NCBI GenBank assembly: GCA_031416315.1 | Contig: JANOTL010000159.1 | Coordinates: 1 to 64,000 of the forward strand | Source: Pseudomonadota bacterium | GTDB lineage: Bacteria > Bdellovibrionota_B > Oligoflexia > Oligoflexales > CAIYRB01 | DNA: 64,000 bases | Direction of reading: 5' to 3' | Shown here: positions 27,488 to 42,552 of the stretch, piece after piece | Numbering within the stretch: the first letter of the stretch is position 1 | Layout: each line of letters opens with the position of its first letter | Position numbers and translations under genes: made by a program | Notes under the pieces: model-generated | Told to the model about the DNA's origin: nothing | Seen by the model: the letters and a program-made list of their open reading frames with translations, nothing else | Databases searched by the model: none

Positions 27488-27514
27488 TCAAGTTCGTGCC
27501 GGCGGCGCCGATAT
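27488..27514 (+). promoter_or_regulatory. Putative sigma28-type promoter
   Basis: TCAAG-N14-GCCGATAT, 34 bp before the lipoprotein start. Confidence 0.6.
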
Positions 27515-27548
27515 GAAGGGGAATCGACGTCACTCCCGGGGTTACACT

Positions 27549-28433
27549 ATGCAGCTTGCGCGCATCATCGCAGTTTGTCTCGCCGCGACCCTGCCGCTCG
27601 GCGGCGTCGCCTGCAACAGCGGCGAGTTCGCCGGCTCCGGCGCCAAAACTGAGACCAAAAAAGCCGCGGCGAAGAAGGACTCTCCGGACACCGAAAAGCC
27701 GCAGGACAAAGGCAAGCCCGAGAAGCCGGAAAAAGAGAAGCCGAGCAAGGACAAGCCGAAAGAGAAGCCGGACAAGAAGCCGGTTGATCCGGGCGACGAG
27801 GGCGACGGCGCGCCGCTGGACGACAAGACTCCCGACGAGCCGCTCTTCAAGGACCTGACCGACAACGCCCCCGCGGGACCCGGCGAGGACACCGACACGT
27901 CGAACGGCCAGCCCTTCATCGACCTTCTCGGCGGCCTCCTGAGTGGCCCGGGCATCGACTCCGGCGACCTCGGCACGCAGCCGAACGACAACGAGATCAT
28001 CTTCGGCGATACCAAGACTTTCCACTTGGGCGACGGCCAGATGACGCAGAGCTCCTGCATCGAGGGCATCTCGCCCTATCCGGTCGCCGGCAAGCAGTAC
28101 CTCTTCGAGTTCGAGGTCTTGGGCGACGGCGCCGTCTCGGTCAACATCGGCACGGTCTGCGGCGTCGACTACAGCGACACCAACCTCGTCTTCATCGCCC
28201 AGAACGGCAGCCCCGTCGGCACGCCGACGCCGCTCCCGATCGGCGCCTCCAGCGCCCAGATCCCTTCGACCAACCTGACCAAAGGCAAATACTCCATCGG
28301 CGTCGAGTCCCGCATCGGCACCTCCGACCCGCAAGGCAACCCGAACGACGCCGACGACTACATCTTGGGCAAGGTCAAGATCTCCTCCCAGGGCGCCAAA
28401 ATCAAAATCGGCAAGGTCTACGTCAACCCGTAA
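27549..28433 (+). CDS. Lipoprotein with K/P/E/D-rich disordered linker and C-terminal beta domain
   Basis: Lipobox GVAC, KPEK-like repeats, two Cys in the C-terminal domain. Confidence 0.8.
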   Translation: MQLARIIAVCLAATLPLGGVACNSGEFAGSGAKTETKKAAAKKDSPDTEKPQDKGKPEKPEKEKPSKDKPKEKPDKKPVDPGDEGDGAPLDDKTPDEPLFKDLTDNAPAGPGEDTDTSNGQPFIDLLGGLLSGPGIDSGDLGTQPNDNEIIFGDTKTFHLGDGQMTQSSCIEGISPYPVAGKQYLFEFEVLGDGAVSVNIGTVCGVDYSDTNLVFIAQNGSPVGTPTPLPIGASSAQIPSTNLTKGKYSIGVESRIGTSDPQGNPNDADDYILGKVKISSQGAKIKIGKVYVNP

Positions 28434-29457: not shown

Positions 29458-29898
29458 GTGCAAACCCCGTTCAGCAACTTCCCGCATCCCGACAACTTCG
29501 GCCGCATCTTGGGCTACGAGGTGAAAAGCTTCGACCGCGAGCAACGCGAGGCGATGGTCCGTCTGCCAACCCGCGACGACCACGTCTCGCCCTCCGGCAA
29601 GATCCACGGCGGCGTCATCTCCGCGCTCCTCGACTACAGCTGCGGCGTCGCCACCTGCACGACCCTCGGCGACGGCGAGCTGTGCTCGACCGTCGAGATC
29701 AAGGTGAACTACTTCCGCCCCGTCAATCTCGGGGAAGTGCTCGAGGCGACCGCGCGCGTCGTCTTCCGCGGCAAGAAGCTCTGCGGCCTCACGGCGCTGC
29801 TCCACCGCGCCGGCGATCCGGAGCCGGTTGCCATGGCCTCCGCGACCTTCAACATCATCCGCAGCGAAGGCCCCACAAAAGGCGGGGGCACGGCCTGA
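29458..29898 (+). CDS. PaaI-family thioesterase
   Basis: GKIHGGVISALLD and TVEIKVNYFRP motifs. Confidence 0.9.
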   Translation: MQTPFSNFPHPDNFGRILGYEVKSFDREQREAMVRLPTRDDHVSPSGKIHGGVISALLDYSCGVATCTTLGDGELCSTVEIKVNYFRPVNLGEVLEATARVVFRGKKLCGLTALLHRAGDPEPVAMASATFNIIRSEGPTKGGGTA

Positions 29899-30192: not shown

Positions 30193-30594
30193 TTAAAGAC
30201 CAGCCCCGCGATCTTGGCCGCCCCCCCGCGGCTGGCGAATCAATTTATCGTTTAGATTCCGTCTGCTTACAGCAAACGCCGCAACTTCCGCCTCCATCTT
30301 GCCGACGCACGTCAACCCGAACATCTTGAAGTCGGCGAGGAGGGACCACAGCGGATACGTCCAGCTCGCCGGCTTGTTCTTCTCGATCACGAAGTGCCCG
30401 AACCAGGCGAAGCCGTAACCCGCGACCGGTAGAAGCAGCACGAGCCAAGCTTTTCCTGTCGCCAGCGCGGTGGCCGCCAAGGCGATCACCAAGGTCGTGC
30501 CGATGAAGTGCAGGCGCCGGTTCTTGCGGTCGGAGTGCTCGCCGACGTAGTACGGCCAGAACTCCGTGAAACTTTGAATGCGCTTCTCGCTCAC
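30193..30594 (-). CDS. DUF962/Mpo1-like membrane protein
   Basis: FWPYY..EH...NRRLH, GYGFAWFGH...EKNKPA...YP.WS. Confidence 0.88.
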   Translation of the reverse strand: MSEKRIQSFTEFWPYYVGEHSDRKNRRLHFIGTTLVIALAATALATGKAWLVLLLPVAGYGFAWFGHFVIEKNKPASWTYPLWSLLADFKMFGLTCVGKMEAEVAAFAVSRRNLNDKLIRQPRGGGQDRGAGL

Positions 30595-32625: not shown

Positions 32626-32653
32626 TCAAGTCATGGCTCATTGGAGCCGATGA
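32626..32653 (+). promoter_or_regulatory. Putative sigma28-type promoter
   Basis: TCAAG-N15-GCCGATGA upstream of the lipoprotein operon. Confidence 0.55.
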
Positions 32654-32703
32654 AGTGAATTGAGCGGAACCGATGCTTTGCGTTTTCCTAGGACGAGGGT
32701 CTC

Positions 32704-33948
32704 TTGAAATCACGTTCGTTGAGACGAAACGCCCTGATGGCGCCCTTGGCCGCGGCCCTGGTCGTCGCCGCCTGCGGCGAAGGCGGCGCCAAAGTCAACG
32801 CGCCCCCGATGGGCGCGCAGAGCAACTTGCGCCCGGGCACATCGAATACGCTCGACCAGAAACCGAATCCAGGCGGTGGTGGCGCCACTCCCGGCGGCGG
32901 CTCGCTCGCCGCCGACCTCGAAGGCAAATCGATCATCGAGGCCAAGTACGGCCTCAACATCAAGGCCGCCGGCTTCGACTTCTGCGAAGGCCAGGCGATC
33001 TTCAAGATCAACGTGCCGGCGGCGCCGAAAGCGGGCATCAAGCCCAAGCCGCCGCTCGACCTGAAGTGCGTCTCGATCAATTGCTCCATCGTCGGCGAGA
33101 TCCGTCTCGACAACCTCCTCGGCGGCCTCTCCTCCGGTACCGCGAGCGAGCTCGAGGCGCAGACCGGCAAAGGGATGAAGCTCGAGCTCGACGAGAAGTT
33201 CATCCGTTTCAGCGAGGCCGGCCCGATCACCTACAATCCGCCGCTGATCCTGATCCCGAACTTCTCCGGCGGCTCGAAGGAATTCCTGAAGTCGATGAAC
33301 GAGACGCAGCCCGTGACGCTGCAGGACAGCACGGCCGGCGCCTCCGCCAGCGGCACCCAGACCATCAAGACGACGATGTTCGAGCAATCCTGGAACGAGC
33401 ACAAGATCCCGAACGTCAAGTTCGAGGACGTCTTCCAGTTCCAGCTCGTCAACGACGGCTTCAACGGCATCGACAAGATCCCGGCGCTCCTCTTCGAGTC
33501 GTTCGAGATGACGATGAACCTGAAGCCGATCGCCATCGGCGAGATCCAGATCCGCATGGCGGCCGCCGACCTGATGGCCATGATGAAGAAGAAGGACGGC
33601 GCCGCAGCCCCCGTTTATGACCCCGAGTGCGGCCCGCCGCCTCCGGTCAAGCCCGACTCGGGCGGCCTAGGTTCGCTCCTCGGCGGCATCGGCGGCGGCG
33701 GCGGCAGCGGCTCGCCTTCCCTCCTCGGCTCCATCGTCGGCGTCCTCATGCCGGTGATCACCAAGCTCATCAAAGTCGAGCTCAAAGCGACCCTGTTGGA
33801 GCAAAAAGGCCTGAAAGAAGCCTTCGAGAAGCAAGACGAGTTCGACAAGCTCCTCGACTCCAGCAAGGTCAGCGAAGGCGAGGCCGACAAGGGCTCCAGC
33901 TCCGGCTCGAGCAAAAGCTCCGGCAGCAGCAGCAACGAGGACGGCTGA
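32704..33948 (+). CDS. Lipoprotein A (paralog of 34806..35717)
   Basis: Lipobox VAAC; aligns by eye with lipoprotein C. Confidence 0.8.
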   Translation: MKSRSLRRNALMAPLAAALVVAACGEGGAKVNAPPMGAQSNLRPGTSNTLDQKPNPGGGGATPGGGSLAADLEGKSIIEAKYGLNIKAAGFDFCEGQAIFKINVPAAPKAGIKPKPPLDLKCVSINCSIVGEIRLDNLLGGLSSGTASELEAQTGKGMKLELDEKFIRFSEAGPITYNPPLILIPNFSGGSKEFLKSMNETQPVTLQDSTAGASASGTQTIKTTMFEQSWNEHKIPNVKFEDVFQFQLVNDGFNGIDKIPALLFESFEMTMNLKPIAIGEIQIRMAAADLMAMMKKKDGAAAPVYDPECGPPPPVKPDSGGLGSLLGGIGGGGGSGSPSLLGSIVGVLMPVITKLIKVELKATLLEQKGLKEAFEKQDEFDKLLDSSKVSEGEADKGSSSGSSKSSGSSSNEDG

Positions 33949-33951
33949 GCC

Positions 33952-34800
33952 ATGCGCCGCCTTGCCGCCATCTTTGCCTTCGGAGCCGCCGCGACCCTCG
34001 CGGCAGGCTGCGGCGCGCCCGTGAAGAGCGCGAGCGAGGTCGCGAGCCTGTTTGCCGGCGACGCGACGACTCTGCAGCAAAAAGTCTCAGACCTCTGCGG
34101 CATCCTCGCCGCCCGTGACGCCGAGCCGACCCTGAAGAACACCAACATCCCGTACAACGACTGCGCGGACGTCGGTCTTGCCGCGCAGAACCTGACCGAC
34201 ATCGAGCGCTTCGGCTTCCTGGGCCTGGACTCGGGCAAGAAGGAAGACGACGTCATCCGCTTCGCTCTGCGCACCGAGGTCTGGCTCAATCGGGACCTGA
34301 TCGATCTCGCCAGCGTCGCCAGCGACCTCATGAAGAAGAAGAAGGCCGAAGGCGGCGGCAAAGGCATCCTCGACCTGCCCGAAGGCGGCGTCGGCAAGGC
34401 CGGCGGACCGATCAAGCTCGCGGTCAAGATCACCAAAGAGCCCAAGTTCGACCTCGCGGAGTTCGCCTTCGGCATGGAGCTCAACTTCAAGGCCGACGGC
34501 ATCATCCTCGCCGACAACACCATCGCCATCGACGGCAAGCTGATCGACAACAAAATCGCCGCGCACGTGCGCACCCTAGAGGACCAGCCGTTCGAGAAGT
34601 CGATCCTGAAGTCGCTCGAAGCCTTGTTCATCGCCACTCCGCATGCCGGGGACGTCTACGTCGACGTCTTCCTGGACATGCAGGTCCACTCCCTCGGCGT
34701 CGGCGACGAGGCGATCAAATCCAAAGTCCAAGACCTGATGAGCTCCTATCTCAAGACGGCCATCGACGGCCTCTTGAACCTGAAGAAGAAAGAGGGCTGA
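33952..34800 (+). CDS. Lipoprotein B
   Basis: Lipobox AAGC, 3-bp gap to the previous gene, beta-rich core with a C-terminal helix. Confidence 0.8.
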   Translation: MRRLAAIFAFGAAATLAAGCGAPVKSASEVASLFAGDATTLQQKVSDLCGILAARDAEPTLKNTNIPYNDCADVGLAAQNLTDIERFGFLGLDSGKKEDDVIRFALRTEVWLNRDLIDLASVASDLMKKKKAEGGGKGILDLPEGGVGKAGGPIKLAVKITKEPKFDLAEFAFGMELNFKADGIILADNTIAIDGKLIDNKIAAHVRTLEDQPFEKSILKSLEALFIATPHAGDVYVDVFLDMQVHSLGVGDEAIKSKVQDLMSSYLKTAIDGLLNLKKKEG

Positions 34801-34805
34801 GCCCC

Positions 34806-35717
34806 ATGCGCGCGATCCACAACCTAAGCGCCGTCGCCCTTCTCGCCTCGCTTGTCGGCGTTGCCGCCTGCGACGAGTCGGACGAGAAGGTGTTCAAGAG
34901 CCCGGGCAACACCGAGTCGAAGCCGATGGCGACCATGATGGACAAGGTCAACGGCGCCGCCGACGGCCTGGCGGCCAGCGACGAGAAGCCGACGGTCGTG
35001 GCCTCGGCCACTTACCTGGTCAACGTCGAGACCGAGACGACCTCCGTTTGCAACGGCGAGTTCTCCGGCCAGATCATGTCGAACTTCTCCTTCAAGCTGC
35101 CCGAGGCCATGATCCAGTGCGCGGGCCTTCAGCTCGACATCGCCGCGATGCTCGCCGGCGGCCTGACCGGCGGCCTCGGCACCGGTGGCGGCGCCGCGTC
35201 CGGCTCCGGGTCGCCCGACCTCAACAATCTTGTCCACGACGGTCGCGTCCTCAGCATGAAGAGCTTCCTCGGCGCCACCTTCGACCCGCCGCGCCCCGTC
35301 CTTCTCGGACCGATCGTCCAGGACGCCGAGCGCTACAGGGATTTCAAAACCACCATCGAGACCACCCTCCGAGGGAAGCTCGGCGAGGAATCTTACAACA
35401 AGCCCGGCAAGTTCAAGATCGAGGTGCTCGAGCACAAGGGCACCTTCACGAACGACGCGATCAAGGACAAAGAGCCGCTGACCAACATCCTCCATTGGAA
35501 GATGGAGGCCGAGGGCTTCGAAGGCGTCCCTGTGATGCTCGGCCTGCCGATTCCCTACTTCGAGTTCGTTTGGAACACGCGTCCGATCATGATCCCGAAG
35601 GTCGTCGTCAAAGGCTCCCTCCTCAAGGGCCTCTTGAAAGGCGACTCGGCCCAGGTCGAGAAGCTCGCCGGCACGATCACGATTACTTTGATTGTGAAGG
35701 ACTACCAGCTCAACTGA
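34806..35717 (+). CDS. Lipoprotein C (paralog of 32704..33948)
   Basis: Lipobox VAAC; 5-bp gap to the previous gene. Confidence 0.8.
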   Translation: MRAIHNLSAVALLASLVGVAACDESDEKVFKSPGNTESKPMATMMDKVNGAADGLAASDEKPTVVASATYLVNVETETTSVCNGEFSGQIMSNFSFKLPEAMIQCAGLQLDIAAMLAGGLTGGLGTGGGAASGSGSPDLNNLVHDGRVLSMKSFLGATFDPPRPVLLGPIVQDAERYRDFKTTIETTLRGKLGEESYNKPGKFKIEVLEHKGTFTNDAIKDKEPLTNILHWKMEAEGFEGVPVMLGLPIPYFEFVWNTRPIMIPKVVVKGSLLKGLLKGDSAQVEKLAGTITITLIVKDYQLN

Positions 35718-35764
35718 CGCGCAAAGGACTACCCGGGCCGCGGAGCTTCCGGTAACCTTTCATC

Positions 35765-37087
35765 ATGTTGCGCCTCCTCCTCTCGATCCTAGTCGCCTTC
35801 TGCGTCGCGCCGCGCGCGCAAGCGCAGCTCAGCGGCGCCACCAATAAATTGATCGGTGACGCCGGCGTCGCCGGCTCGACCGCCTCTGCCGCCGAGATCA
35901 ACCCGGCCAACGCCGGCTTCGTCGATCGCACGCAGATCGACTCCAACGGCTCGCTCTTCTCGTCCAGCACGCTGCTCGTGCGCTATCCCGGCTTCGAGAC
36001 GGCCGAGACCTCGACCTCCGGCCTCAGCCTTCCGATCGGCGTCCCGCCGGGCTTCATCTACAAGCTGAACCCGCGCTTCGGCATCGGCGGCTTCTTCGTA
36101 CCCGGCGTCGGCCTCGGCCAGGACGTCGCGGCGAAAAGGATCCCGGTGATCATCCTCGGCACGCTCAACTACCTCGACATCGTCGGAAAGGGCACGCTCA
36201 ACGGCGCCGGCCATCTGACCGCCGGCTACCGCGTCCTGCCCAACCTCGGCGTCGGCCTCTCGTTCTCGACCCTATCGGCCGCCTTCGCAGTCGAAGGCAA
36301 ACCGTCGAACGGCGGCGCGACGCTCGTGAACGTGAAGGGCTCGATCTCCAACATGAGCATGACCTTCGGCGTGCGCTTCGACCCCGTCCCCAACAAGCTC
36401 GCGCTCGGCTTCACCACCGTCCTGGTCAACAAGAGCGACCTTCAGACCGACATCTCCTCGCCCCTGATCGACAGCGGCCTCGGTGGCGGCGGCGCGGGCG
36501 CCAAGCCCCCCGCCAGCGGCAAGCCGGGCAAGACAAGTAACGGCCAGCTCGACCCCTTCAAGTCCATCGAAGGCGGCTTCTCCTTCCGCATCACTCCGCG
36601 CGCGCGCGTCCTGGCGGACTTCGCCTACAGCCGCGCGAACAAGGAAGAGAAGATTTTCTCCCTCGTCGACCTTCGCGAAAAGAAGAAGGACGTCCACGAC
36701 ACCTTCAGCATCAAGGCCGGCGGCATCGTCGGCCTCACCGATAACGGCAACGTCATGGTCGGCTACCACAACGAGCCGGCCAAGATCGGCCAGGGCGCCA
36801 AGGGCGAGGGCACGCTCGCCGGCTTCGGCAGCATCGACCTGATCATGATTATGGCCGGCCTCGAGGAGCTCAAGCCCTACACGCAGTACGCCGGCGGCGC
36901 TCAGTTCGGCTTCATGCCGCAGAAAGAGAAGAAGGGCAAAGAGGTGAGCTACTACTACGCCCTGACTCTCTCGACGGGTCTCGTCTATCGCAAGGCCTCT
37001 TTGGGCATCGACGAGAAGGGCGAGTTGCCGGGGGCGTATCTGTCCAAGAAGACGACGATTCCTCTGGGAATCCTGTACCGCTTCTGA
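35765..37087 (+). CDS. FadL/OmpP1-like outer-membrane beta-barrel
   Basis: Signal peptide AQA, hatch-like N-terminus with NPA motif, amphipathic strands, C-terminal GILYRF beta-signal. Confidence 0.65.
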   Translation: MLRLLLSILVAFCVAPRAQAQLSGATNKLIGDAGVAGSTASAAEINPANAGFVDRTQIDSNGSLFSSSTLLVRYPGFETAETSTSGLSLPIGVPPGFIYKLNPRFGIGGFFVPGVGLGQDVAAKRIPVIILGTLNYLDIVGKGTLNGAGHLTAGYRVLPNLGVGLSFSTLSAAFAVEGKPSNGGATLVNVKGSISNMSMTFGVRFDPVPNKLALGFTTVLVNKSDLQTDISSPLIDSGLGGGGAGAKPPASGKPGKTSNGQLDPFKSIEGGFSFRITPRARVLADFAYSRANKEEKIFSLVDLREKKKDVHDTFSIKAGGIVGLTDNGNVMVGYHNEPAKIGQGAKGEGTLAGFGSIDLIMIMAGLEELKPYTQYAGGAQFGFMPQKEKKGKEVSYYYALTLSTGLVYRKASLGIDEKGELPGAYLSKKTTIPLGILYRF

Positions 37088-41493: not shown

Positions 41494-42552
41494 CTAGGAC
41501 GCCGCCACCTGCTCCACCCCGTCCGCCGACCCACGCGGAATGAAGCTCGAGATCGAGTTCGACCGAATGTAGTCCTCGAACACGTACTGATCTTTCTCGC
41601 TCATGTTGATGAACTTCACGCCGAAGCCGGCTTTGTAGCCTTCCTCGCGCGAAGGTCTCTTCCAAACCACGAGCCCGCGCACCTTCAAGGTGTCTGTGCA
41701 AGCGGCTGGCGTCACCTTGAGCTCGACGACGCTGCCGATGCCCAAGCGATTCTTCTTCTGTGCCGTTTGGTCCATCGGAATGAACGCGCCCCCGAAGCCG
41801 ATCTCGCCGCGCTTGATCGCGAAGGTCTCATCGAGGACGATCGGCGCCGAGCCCGCGATCTGCAGGAGCTCGTCCTTCTCTTCCTTCGACTCGACCAGAT
41901 ATTCCATGATCATGCGGAAGAGCTTGTCCAGGTCGATCGGCTTCTCGATGAAGCCGGCCGCGCCGTAGTGCATGCACTCTTCGGTCGAATGATCCGGGTA
42001 GCCGGTGATGAACATGAAGTACGGCCACACTTGGTACGCCTTGCGCACCGCCTTCAACACTTCCATGCCGTCCATCGACGGCATCCGCAGGTCGCATACC
42101 ACGAAGTCGATGTTGAACTTCGAGATCGTCTCCACCGCCTGGTTGGGGTCCAAGAGGCTGTAGGTCTTGATCCCGCGCTCGGCCAGGCCATTGCGCACGT
42201 ATTCGCAGATCATCGCCTCGTCGTCGATGATCAGAACCCGGGGCTTCCGGACGAAGAGGCTGCGGTTCTGGAGGCGATCGGCCGCGAAGCGTAGGAAGGA
42301 CGAGAGGATCTCAGTCTTCGACTTCGTGTGCGTTTTTTCGAAGATCGACTTCAGGTGATTGTTCACCGTGTGCGTCGAGATCCCGAGCGATTGGGCGATC
42401 TCTTCGGAGTTGGTGATGTTCCGGATCAAGGCCATGACGATGTCGGTCTCGCGCTTGCTGAGTCGACTAAACTGGGTAAAGCCTTCGATCTCGGCTGCGA
42501 ACACCGAAGGGGCCTGGCTCGTCTTCGCGGAATTTTCGCTCTTGCTCGCCAA
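41494..42552 (-). CDS. LuxR-HTH / REC / PilZ-like regulator
   Basis: LSKRE...IAQSLGISTHTVNNHLKSIFEK (HTH); IDDE...CDLRMPSMDG...KP (REC); GGAFI...VRGLVVW...GFGVKF (PilZ-like). Confidence 0.85.
   Translation of the reverse strand: MASKSENSAKTSQAPSVFAAEIEGFTQFSRLSKRETDIVMALIRNITNSEEIAQSLGISTHTVNNHLKSIFEKTHTKSKTEILSSFLRFAADRLQNRSLFVRKPRVLIIDDEAMICEYVRNGLAERGIKTYSLLDPNQAVETISKFNIDFVVCDLRMPSMDGMEVLKAVRKAYQVWPYFMFITGYPDHSTEECMHYGAAGFIEKPIDLDKLFRMIMEYLVESKEEKDELLQIAGSAPIVLDETFAIKRGEIGFGGAFIPMDQTAQKKNRLGIGSVVELKVTPAACTDTLKVRGLVVWKRPSREEGYKAGFGVKFINMSEKDQYVFEDYIRSNSISSFIPRGSADGVEQVAAS

Follow-up and report, generated by a model that had tools for sequence, protein, structure and literature searches.

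A conserved four-gene set encoding three lipoproteins and a predicted distant FadL-superfamily barrel in an Oligoflexia genome

What do three lipoproteins do for an outer-membrane barrel encoded next to them? This question is raised by a locus in a Pseudomonadota bacterium that GTDB places in the Bdellovibrionota_B (Oligoflexia; Oligoflexales; CAIYRB01), within a 64,000-nucleotide stretch of DNA, here called the window (positions 1 to 64,000 of contig JANOTL010000159.1, assembly GCA_031416315.1). A first-pass annotation of the window described three lipoproteins and a FadL-like barrel, encoded by four co-oriented genes with gaps of 3, 5 and 47 bp under a sigma28-like promoter, and read them either as a machine for lipid capture and uptake or as a barrel-anchored lipoprotein complex or fibre. 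We found the open reading frames (ORFs), their spacing and the promoter as described, and the set A-B-C-D is real and conserved:

32626-32653, + strand: sigma28 (FliA)-like promoter, TCAAG-N15-GCCGATGA
32704-33948, + strand: gene A, TTG start, 414 amino acids (aa), lipoprotein (Cys24), paralogue of C, accessory
33952-34800, + strand: gene B, 282 aa, lipoprotein (Cys20), predicted to adopt a START/helix-grip fold
34806-35717, + strand: gene C, 303 aa, lipoprotein (Cys22), predicted large curved beta-sheet with helical inserts
35765-37087, + strand: gene D (P0004), 440 aa, predicted FadL-superfamily outer-membrane barrel with a signal peptide

As to function, we consider it an even call that the products assemble on the cell surface, anchored by the barrel, to take up external lipids and deliver them into the outer membrane. 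Third-position GC lies between 0.89 and 0.91 in each of the four genes. The likeliest start of A is the TTG at 32704, downstream of a GAGG and giving a basic N-region, the alternative being the ATG at 32737. By a loose pattern, the lipobox-like cysteine is kept in all family rows examined of B (21/21), C (39/39) and A (12/12). Family scans, including those of relatives' rows, returned no meaningful Pfam or NCBIfam match for A, B or C.

The conservation of the set was analyzed in 131 genomes of the phylum. B was found in 34 of them and D in 40 at E ≤ 1e-8; the D match is strong (E < 1e-60) in 32 genomes, all 32 of which have B, showing that the genes co-occur well beyond the window. The profiles were partly built from sampled genomes, 17 of which gave B rows and 20 D rows; the 12 D-positive genomes without a row in the D profile all carry B. 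Two genomes (G092 and G095, 90% complete) have B, and D was not found in them. The A/C profile matched 44 genomes at E ≤ 0.001, eight of them weakly and over the N-terminal part only, which were set aside, and 36 strongly (E < 1e-20), namely the 34 B-positive genomes and two more. The set is present in 11 of 11 other genomes of the window's family and patchy elsewhere, being not found in families f12 (0/16) and f19 (0/33); three or four clusters are present in some genomes. Locus scans with single proteins yielded no relatives.

Gene order was read in 49 stretches, 29 picked by D matches and 20 by B matches. An A/C-family gene lies directly 3′ of B for 41 of the 47 B genes; two of the six remaining B genes sit at the end of a stretch, and L023 was counted by hand, its C frame being called with an upstream start. 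D occurs in the same stretch for 33/47 B genes and B in the stretch of 33/36 D genes, with D placed first, last, divergent or convergent relative to B-C; in genus g24, B-C is often apart from D. A is missing from many related clusters, and no fifth gene is conserved among the neighbours examined. This arrangement across the stretches shows B-C to be the core, D its usual partner and A an accessory. In two genomes (G041 and G042), B and C are fused into a single ORF that has a single lipobox and immediately precedes D; the B profile matches the N-terminal half of the fusions (E 6e-14 and 9e-13) and the C profile the C-terminal half (E 7e-37 and 4e-41). In G041 (L120:5317-8169), the D match after the fusion is split over two ORFs, for which a frameshift or an assembly error are candidates. 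Finally, where clusters are paralogous, the top-scoring B and D share a cluster in 76 of 111 comparisons (34.7 expected), counts that are not independent as several stretches are near-duplicates.

What kind of barrel is D? The annotated NPA hatch motif holds across the family, N-P being invariant in 62/62 D rows, and D ends in Phe, in line with the annotated beta-signal. The NPA aligns with that of the FadL homologue PDB 3dwo, which the D family profile matches at E 6.2e-6, and 6 of 26 family members match Toluene_X (PF03349; best 8.6e-8), P0004 itself having no Pfam match. By sequence, D is best classed as a distant FadL-superfamily barrel. Its alternation pattern, read by eye, suggests 14 strands, and its predicted local distance difference test (pLDDT) score is 77-80 within the complex model described below. 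A near-invariant Pro (mature position 93), matched in the alignment by a 3dwo Pro from the strand 3 region, may be the strand 3 kink of FadL barrels. With cleavage sites placed by eye, the NPA is preceded by about 19 residues in most D rows, 25 in P0004 and 32 in 3dwo. Most invariant residues of D sit in inferred outer loops. Throughout the D family, strands 12 and 13 are joined by a long and variable turn, rich in Lys/Arg and presumably periplasmic (window 36915-36955), which might bind peptidoglycan or anionic lipid. Two further barrels, in G000:C171:42680-46182 (L143) and G000:C200:26762-31631 (L144), weakly match the D profile, at E 8e-6 and 1e-16 when seven proteins were tested; each adjoins two lipoprotein-like genes, none with a Pfam match. 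They may be further barrel-plus-lipoprotein modules, the relation of their lipoproteins to A/C being borderline.

The only NCBIfam match of D is BamG, found for 8 of 26 members (best 9.6e-10) and far below the cut-off. We rejected D as a BamG, since it scores 21 bits with NF053685 against a cut-off of 250, since 0/131 genomes match at E ≤ 1e-12 while the B. thetaiotaomicron control is positive, and since its hatch is short, whereas the BamG tail exceeds that of FadL by about 10 residues. According to two reports, the BamG tail, longer than that of FadL, blocks the lateral opening (PMC12578637, PMC12611786); D, with its short hatch, is without this extension. NCBIfam gave 0 BamH matches among 32 B and 148 A/C rows (the presence of a BamH model being unchecked), and no bamA-like neighbour is conserved by the related clusters.

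Lipoprotein B proved beta-rich with a long C-terminal helix, as annotated, in an AlphaFold 2 (AF2) model with a pLDDT of 78. Foldseek gave 54 matches at E ≤ 0.001, the best being a Xanthomonas START protein (E 7.9e-6), and VIA placed the CERT START domain on top (Z 11.1, root-mean-square deviation (rmsd) 3.9, 182 aligned residues), tied with Ups1/PRELI; the 18 chains reaching Z ≥ 8 are, among the matches listed, of the helix-grip type. An atlas search also returned a START lead (0.80). From its model, B is predicted to have a START/helix-grip fold, that is, a curved sheet round a long C-terminal helix; given the tie between CERT and Ups1/PRELI, the ranking does not tell the ligand class. The best atlas matches (0.91) are unnamed clusters of 262-283 aa, commonest in Myxococcota, possibly a wider START-fold protein family in predatory bacteria. 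Pfam START/Polyketide_cyc matched 0/32 B rows at E ≤ 0.05, a profile search of the PDB with B gave nothing useful, and profile comparison finds B unrelated to C (probability 3%). In the family, the pair Cys49-Cys71 is conserved, as is a segment at the N-terminus.

A pocket of this kind could also belong to an enzyme, with B (or A/C) modifying a hydrophobic substrate at the surface and D taking up the product. Aromatase/cyclases, norcoclaurine synthase and a hydrolase are indeed found in the fold matches of B, and VioE in those of C, and B keeps the polar residues R107, N113, S217, D234, Y236 and D238; however, the best matches of B are lipid-transfer START domains, its family alignment has no fully invariant column, and the invariant residues of C are Cys, Gly and Pro, so that we hold a surface enzyme to be very improbable.

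The proposed paralogy of A and C is borne out: all six quoted motif pairs were found, in order, and the shared cysteines, C82 and C105 in C and C94 and C127 in A, form a pair that is almost invariant in the family. The local alignment of A and C scores 118 against a mean of 38 for shuffles (standard deviation 5.5, maximum 67, n = 300), and profile-profile comparison gives a probability of 99.9% over 248 columns; BLASTP alone is weak (E 5e-4). A carries in addition a variable tether of about 53 residues and a Gly-rich insertion. At 50% identity, the A/C family comprises 256 representatives. Its profile finds as many as 11 matches in some genomes, and solo A/C genes exist in stretches without B or D (L123-L134). 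For the AF2 model of C (pLDDT 84.9), Foldseek found nothing at E ≤ 0.001, the best match being a LolA-type protein (E 9e-3). VIA ranked DUF1849 first (Z 8.6, rmsd 4.6, 167 aligned), followed by a PNGase domain (Z 7.9), LolA (Z 7.3, rmsd 3.6, 118 aligned) and OmpG (Z 6.8), with VioE also among the matches; LolA-type proteins are the most frequent group in the best matches, whose Z values range from 5.5 to 8.6. Neither a profile search of the PDB nor an atlas search with C gave a usable match. C thus weakly resembles the LolA/DUF1849 half-barrels, and a LolA-like fold of C, and possibly of its sister A, is a lead from modelling.

The first-pass annotation had also considered a fibre. Paralogous lipoproteins with a terminal beta-strand and a variable copy number would suit a D-anchored lipoprotein fibre or pilus, but the models of B and C best match pocket or half-barrel folds, with no pilin or fimbrial fold among the matches listed for either, and the B-C fusion exists. 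The fold searches of B and C having left it without support, we give this idea almost no credence.

Do these proteins meet on the barrel? We modelled C, B and D together, with D as the partner chain; of the A-B-C-barrel assembly that had been proposed for such a model, the B-C-D part is predicted, and A was outside the model. The complex scores 0.63, against 0.14 for the best control, with runs agreeing in at least 83% of contacts and a partner pLDDT of at least 77; the pass mark, reached by 116/157 solved pairs and 2/215 mismatched ones, is a rough guide for three chains and our own alignments. D is contacted (counting from Gln21) at residues 51-61, 108-117, 159-167, 212-217, 283-295, 318-351 and 392-406, B at residues 1-20 and 96-109 and at turns near 181 and 211-214, and C through its tether only (residues 5-16). 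In such barrels the C-terminal Phe lies on the periplasmic side. As the contacts of D share parity with the last hairpin before this Phe, the contact loops would be the seven outer loops, which would place every modelled contact on D at the extracellular face. Interface positions exceed the remaining ones in conservation both for D (0.63 vs 0.44; 0/10000 random sets) and for B (0.54 vs 0.42; 12/10000).

How could such an assembly work? A machine that takes lipids from the surroundings and delivers them to the outer membrane is suggested by the linkage, the B-C fusion and the cognate B-D pairing that we observed, together with the predicted folds and docking. In this model, the conserved N-terminal segment of B and the tether of C would dock on the loops of D, the B domain being seated on the hydrophobic second loop. 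B and C would be surface-exposed, as the contact loops are extracellular by barrel topology. The START pocket of B, judging by its fold, would hold one lipid, and C and the longer-tethered A, in variable number, would be extra capture or specificity subunits. By analogy with FadL, the lipid would then leave sideways into the membrane through an opening close to strand 3, no energy source being needed, and sigma28 would switch the set on in the motile phase. A phospholipid, a sphingolipid, a sterol or a long acyl chain, taken from other cells or particles, would all fit as ligands. The genome also has two class-II aminotransferase-like genes, at most candidates for serine palmitoyltransferase. 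The two readings of the first-pass annotation are in fact not exclusive, as the model supports a barrel-anchored complex and the pocket fold of B supports lipid handling.

Several observations weigh against lipid capture and delivery. On the genomic side, D lies within just 7 of the 20 stretches picked by B matches; acyl-CoA ligase, lipase and inner-membrane transporter genes are none of them conserved near related clusters; and accA is present, so that the organism is not an obvious fatty-acid auxotroph. On the structural side, replacing C with an unrelated protein lowers the B+D score to 0.14, which means that support for the complex depends on all three chains; the interface of C is not significantly conserved (1971/10000 random sets); the pass may reflect memory of BamG-BamH, with its similar docking mode; and the N-terminal helix of B, which the model puts in the mouth of the barrel, might just as well obstruct transport. 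The LolA likeness of C is within the range of unrelated beta-sheets, porins scoring alike, and enzymes and hormone receptors are found among the fold matches of B. Nor are START folds always carriers: in PMC12139934, two of three Asgard START proteins moved no sterol.

The same complex could instead be a display scaffold without transport, in which D anchors, and perhaps exports, surface lipoproteins for adhesion, sensing or assembly, as BamG or PorV do, the anchored lipoproteins binding membranes, lipoproteins or hydrophobic signals. The predicted contacts use loops 2-4 and the N-terminal tail, as in BamG-BamH, BamG is the sole NCBIfam match of D, catabolic genes are not conserved nearby, and A/C genes are also found singly, outside the cluster. 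Conversely, the BamG model is far below its cut-off and absent from the phylum at the threshold given above, D has no N-terminal extension, its patchy, multi-copy distribution does not resemble that of an essential subunit of BAM (beta-barrel assembly machinery), and the partner B has a ligand-pocket fold. We regard a pure scaffold as possible, though on the unlikely side.

If the lipoproteins faced inward, they would collect from the outer membrane the lipids that D has let in, a periplasm-side relay for which AupA-AupB is a precedent. By default, lipoproteins stay in the periplasm, also the usual location of LolA-type folds, which favours this arrangement; however, the modelled D contacts are all on presumed outer strand connections, rich in invariant residues, and an inward relay seems to us unlikely. 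The direction of transport could also be reversed, with the complex carrying lipids or hydrophobic products made by the cell itself out to vesicles, prey or surfaces. The same anatomy fits, FadL passage being passive and so presumably able to run either way, and weak squalene-cyclase-like matches are found in both fusion genomes. But neither biosynthetic genes nor an inner-membrane exporter lie nearby, and the cyclase-like matches occur in 4/131 genomes, none over the cut-off, and in 1/34 B-positive ones; since their distribution does not track the cluster, we rejected them as linked to it. Export or release is accordingly rather unlikely, a little more so than the relay.

When would the proposed lipid capture be switched on? 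The genome encodes fliA, over the family cut-off, consistent with the sigma28-like promoter, whose pattern occurs genome-wide at 29 sites with spacers of 14-15, against 0-6 sites for each other spacer (8-29). A similar motif is found at most 200 nt upstream of 11/32 related clusters and in 99/9600 random windows, with the motif pattern fixed after the genome-wide sites had been viewed, the first-gene starts placed by eye and L048 dropped for its short upstream DNA. As fliA is near-universal (125/131 phylum genomes), its presence has no bearing on the distribution of the cluster. We found no sigma70-type promoter, and terminator-like matches are at chance level. The site also matches TTAAG-N16-CCGATA, the attack-phase consensus of Bdellovibrio bacteriovorus, reported for 92/140 attack-phase promoters of that species (PMC3627812). 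Many of 36 looser sigma28-like sites in the genome precede unannotated lipoprotein-like genes, as read by eye, which suggests, from sequence, a large FliA-controlled lipoprotein regulon.

The class Oligoflexia holds both predators and non-predators, and the link to prey lipids is inferred from lineage and from the sigma28-like promoter. A more specific form of the lipid-capture model is doubtful, namely that motile, possibly predatory Oligoflexia carry a sigma28-switched lipid-extraction head made of START and LolA-like lipoproteins on a FadL barrel. If true, whole lipids or lipoproteins would be pulled from the membranes of other cells into the bacterium's own outer membrane, a bacterial surface counterpart of eukaryotic tethered lipid-transfer proteins.

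The flanks of the set are ordinary, with a PGA_cap protein upstream and a convergent ppk1 downstream, neither conserved with the cluster. Two genes lie 2-3 kb upstream of the set: an Mpo1-like gene (30196-30594, - strand; 2-hydroxy-palmitate dioxygenase family), which neighbours related clusters in only 4 genomes, and a thioesterase gene (29458-29898, + strand). Elsewhere in the window are a lipoprotein-like gene, Lys/Pro/Asp-rich and without a Pfam match (27513-28433), and a regulator with an unusual domain order of LuxR-type helix-turn-helix, receiver and PilZ domains (41497-42552, - strand).

How does the set compare with known systems? The first-pass annotation recognised no described system with this layout. 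This stood in a search of the full-text literature (subscription papers and supplements lying outside it), where a FadL barrel with a START lipoprotein is not described; FadL barrels with partners are known, and because AupA-AupB and BamG-BamH had been described before, the kind of system is not wholly new. What is new here are the partner lipoproteins on a FadL-family barrel, undescribed and in no curated family, and three protein families missing from Pfam and NCBIfam. Of the FadL barrels known so far, some need no partner, some have one in the inner membrane, and some serve as a scaffold on which proteins are assembled. A START lipoprotein on the outer face of the barrel, if confirmed, would be an undescribed Gram-negative route for lipids from other membranes, and, if the transport reading holds, the set offers a defined four-gene test of foreign-lipid acquisition by Bdellovibrionota. 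Even a scaffold alone would widen the theme of FadL plus surface lipoprotein beyond the phyla of the described BamG-BamH.

Taken singly, the proteins depart from their closest relatives. D shares with the FadL/TodX family (PF03349; PDB 3dwo) the NPA hatch motif, the profile match and the C-terminal Phe, whereas P0004 has no Pfam match and a hatch 7-13 residues shorter; FadL itself acts alone (PMC5989066), while D is predicted to have lipoprotein partners. B resembles the START/SRPBCC domains (CERT 2e3m, Ups1/PRELI 4xhr, Xanthomonas START 3qsz) in its predicted helix-grip fold (Z 9.8-11.1), at 6-15% identity and with no Pfam match in 32/32 rows; unlike them, it carries a lipid anchor, a Cys pair conserved in the family and an N-terminus predicted to dock on the barrel. 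The model of C, a large curved beta-sheet with helical inserts, weakly resembles the LolA/LolB/LppX/DUF1849 half-barrels, at Z values of 5.5-8.6 that do not separate them from porins.

Taken together, the closest parallels in architecture and in function come from two different systems. In the BamG-BamH pair of the Bacteroidota BAM, as PMC12578637 and PMC12611786 describe it, a FadL-family barrel docks a surface lipoprotein by its N-terminal tail, the lipoprotein sitting on a pillar of strands 3-7 with its lipidated tail in a groove (PMC12611786). D differs from that BamG in falling below the cut-off, in its missing N-terminal extension, in outer loops that are conserved rather than variable, and in being patchy and multi-copy, and its partners have predicted START and LolA-like folds, whereas BamH has a carbohydrate-binding fold. 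In Marinobacter hydrocarbonoclasticus, the FadL-family AupA works with its partner AupB in alkane uptake (PMC5989066): the barrel shares an operon with a protein that interacts with it, and the pair serves to take up hydrophobic compounds, as is proposed here. AupB is mostly an inner-membrane protein, whereas here two or three lipoproteins are predicted to lie outside. During alkane uptake in Thalassolituus, a FadL homologue and a LolA-like domain protein are co-induced from unlinked genes (PMC6304351). By analogy, the set described here may be built like BamG-BamH and work like AupA-AupB.

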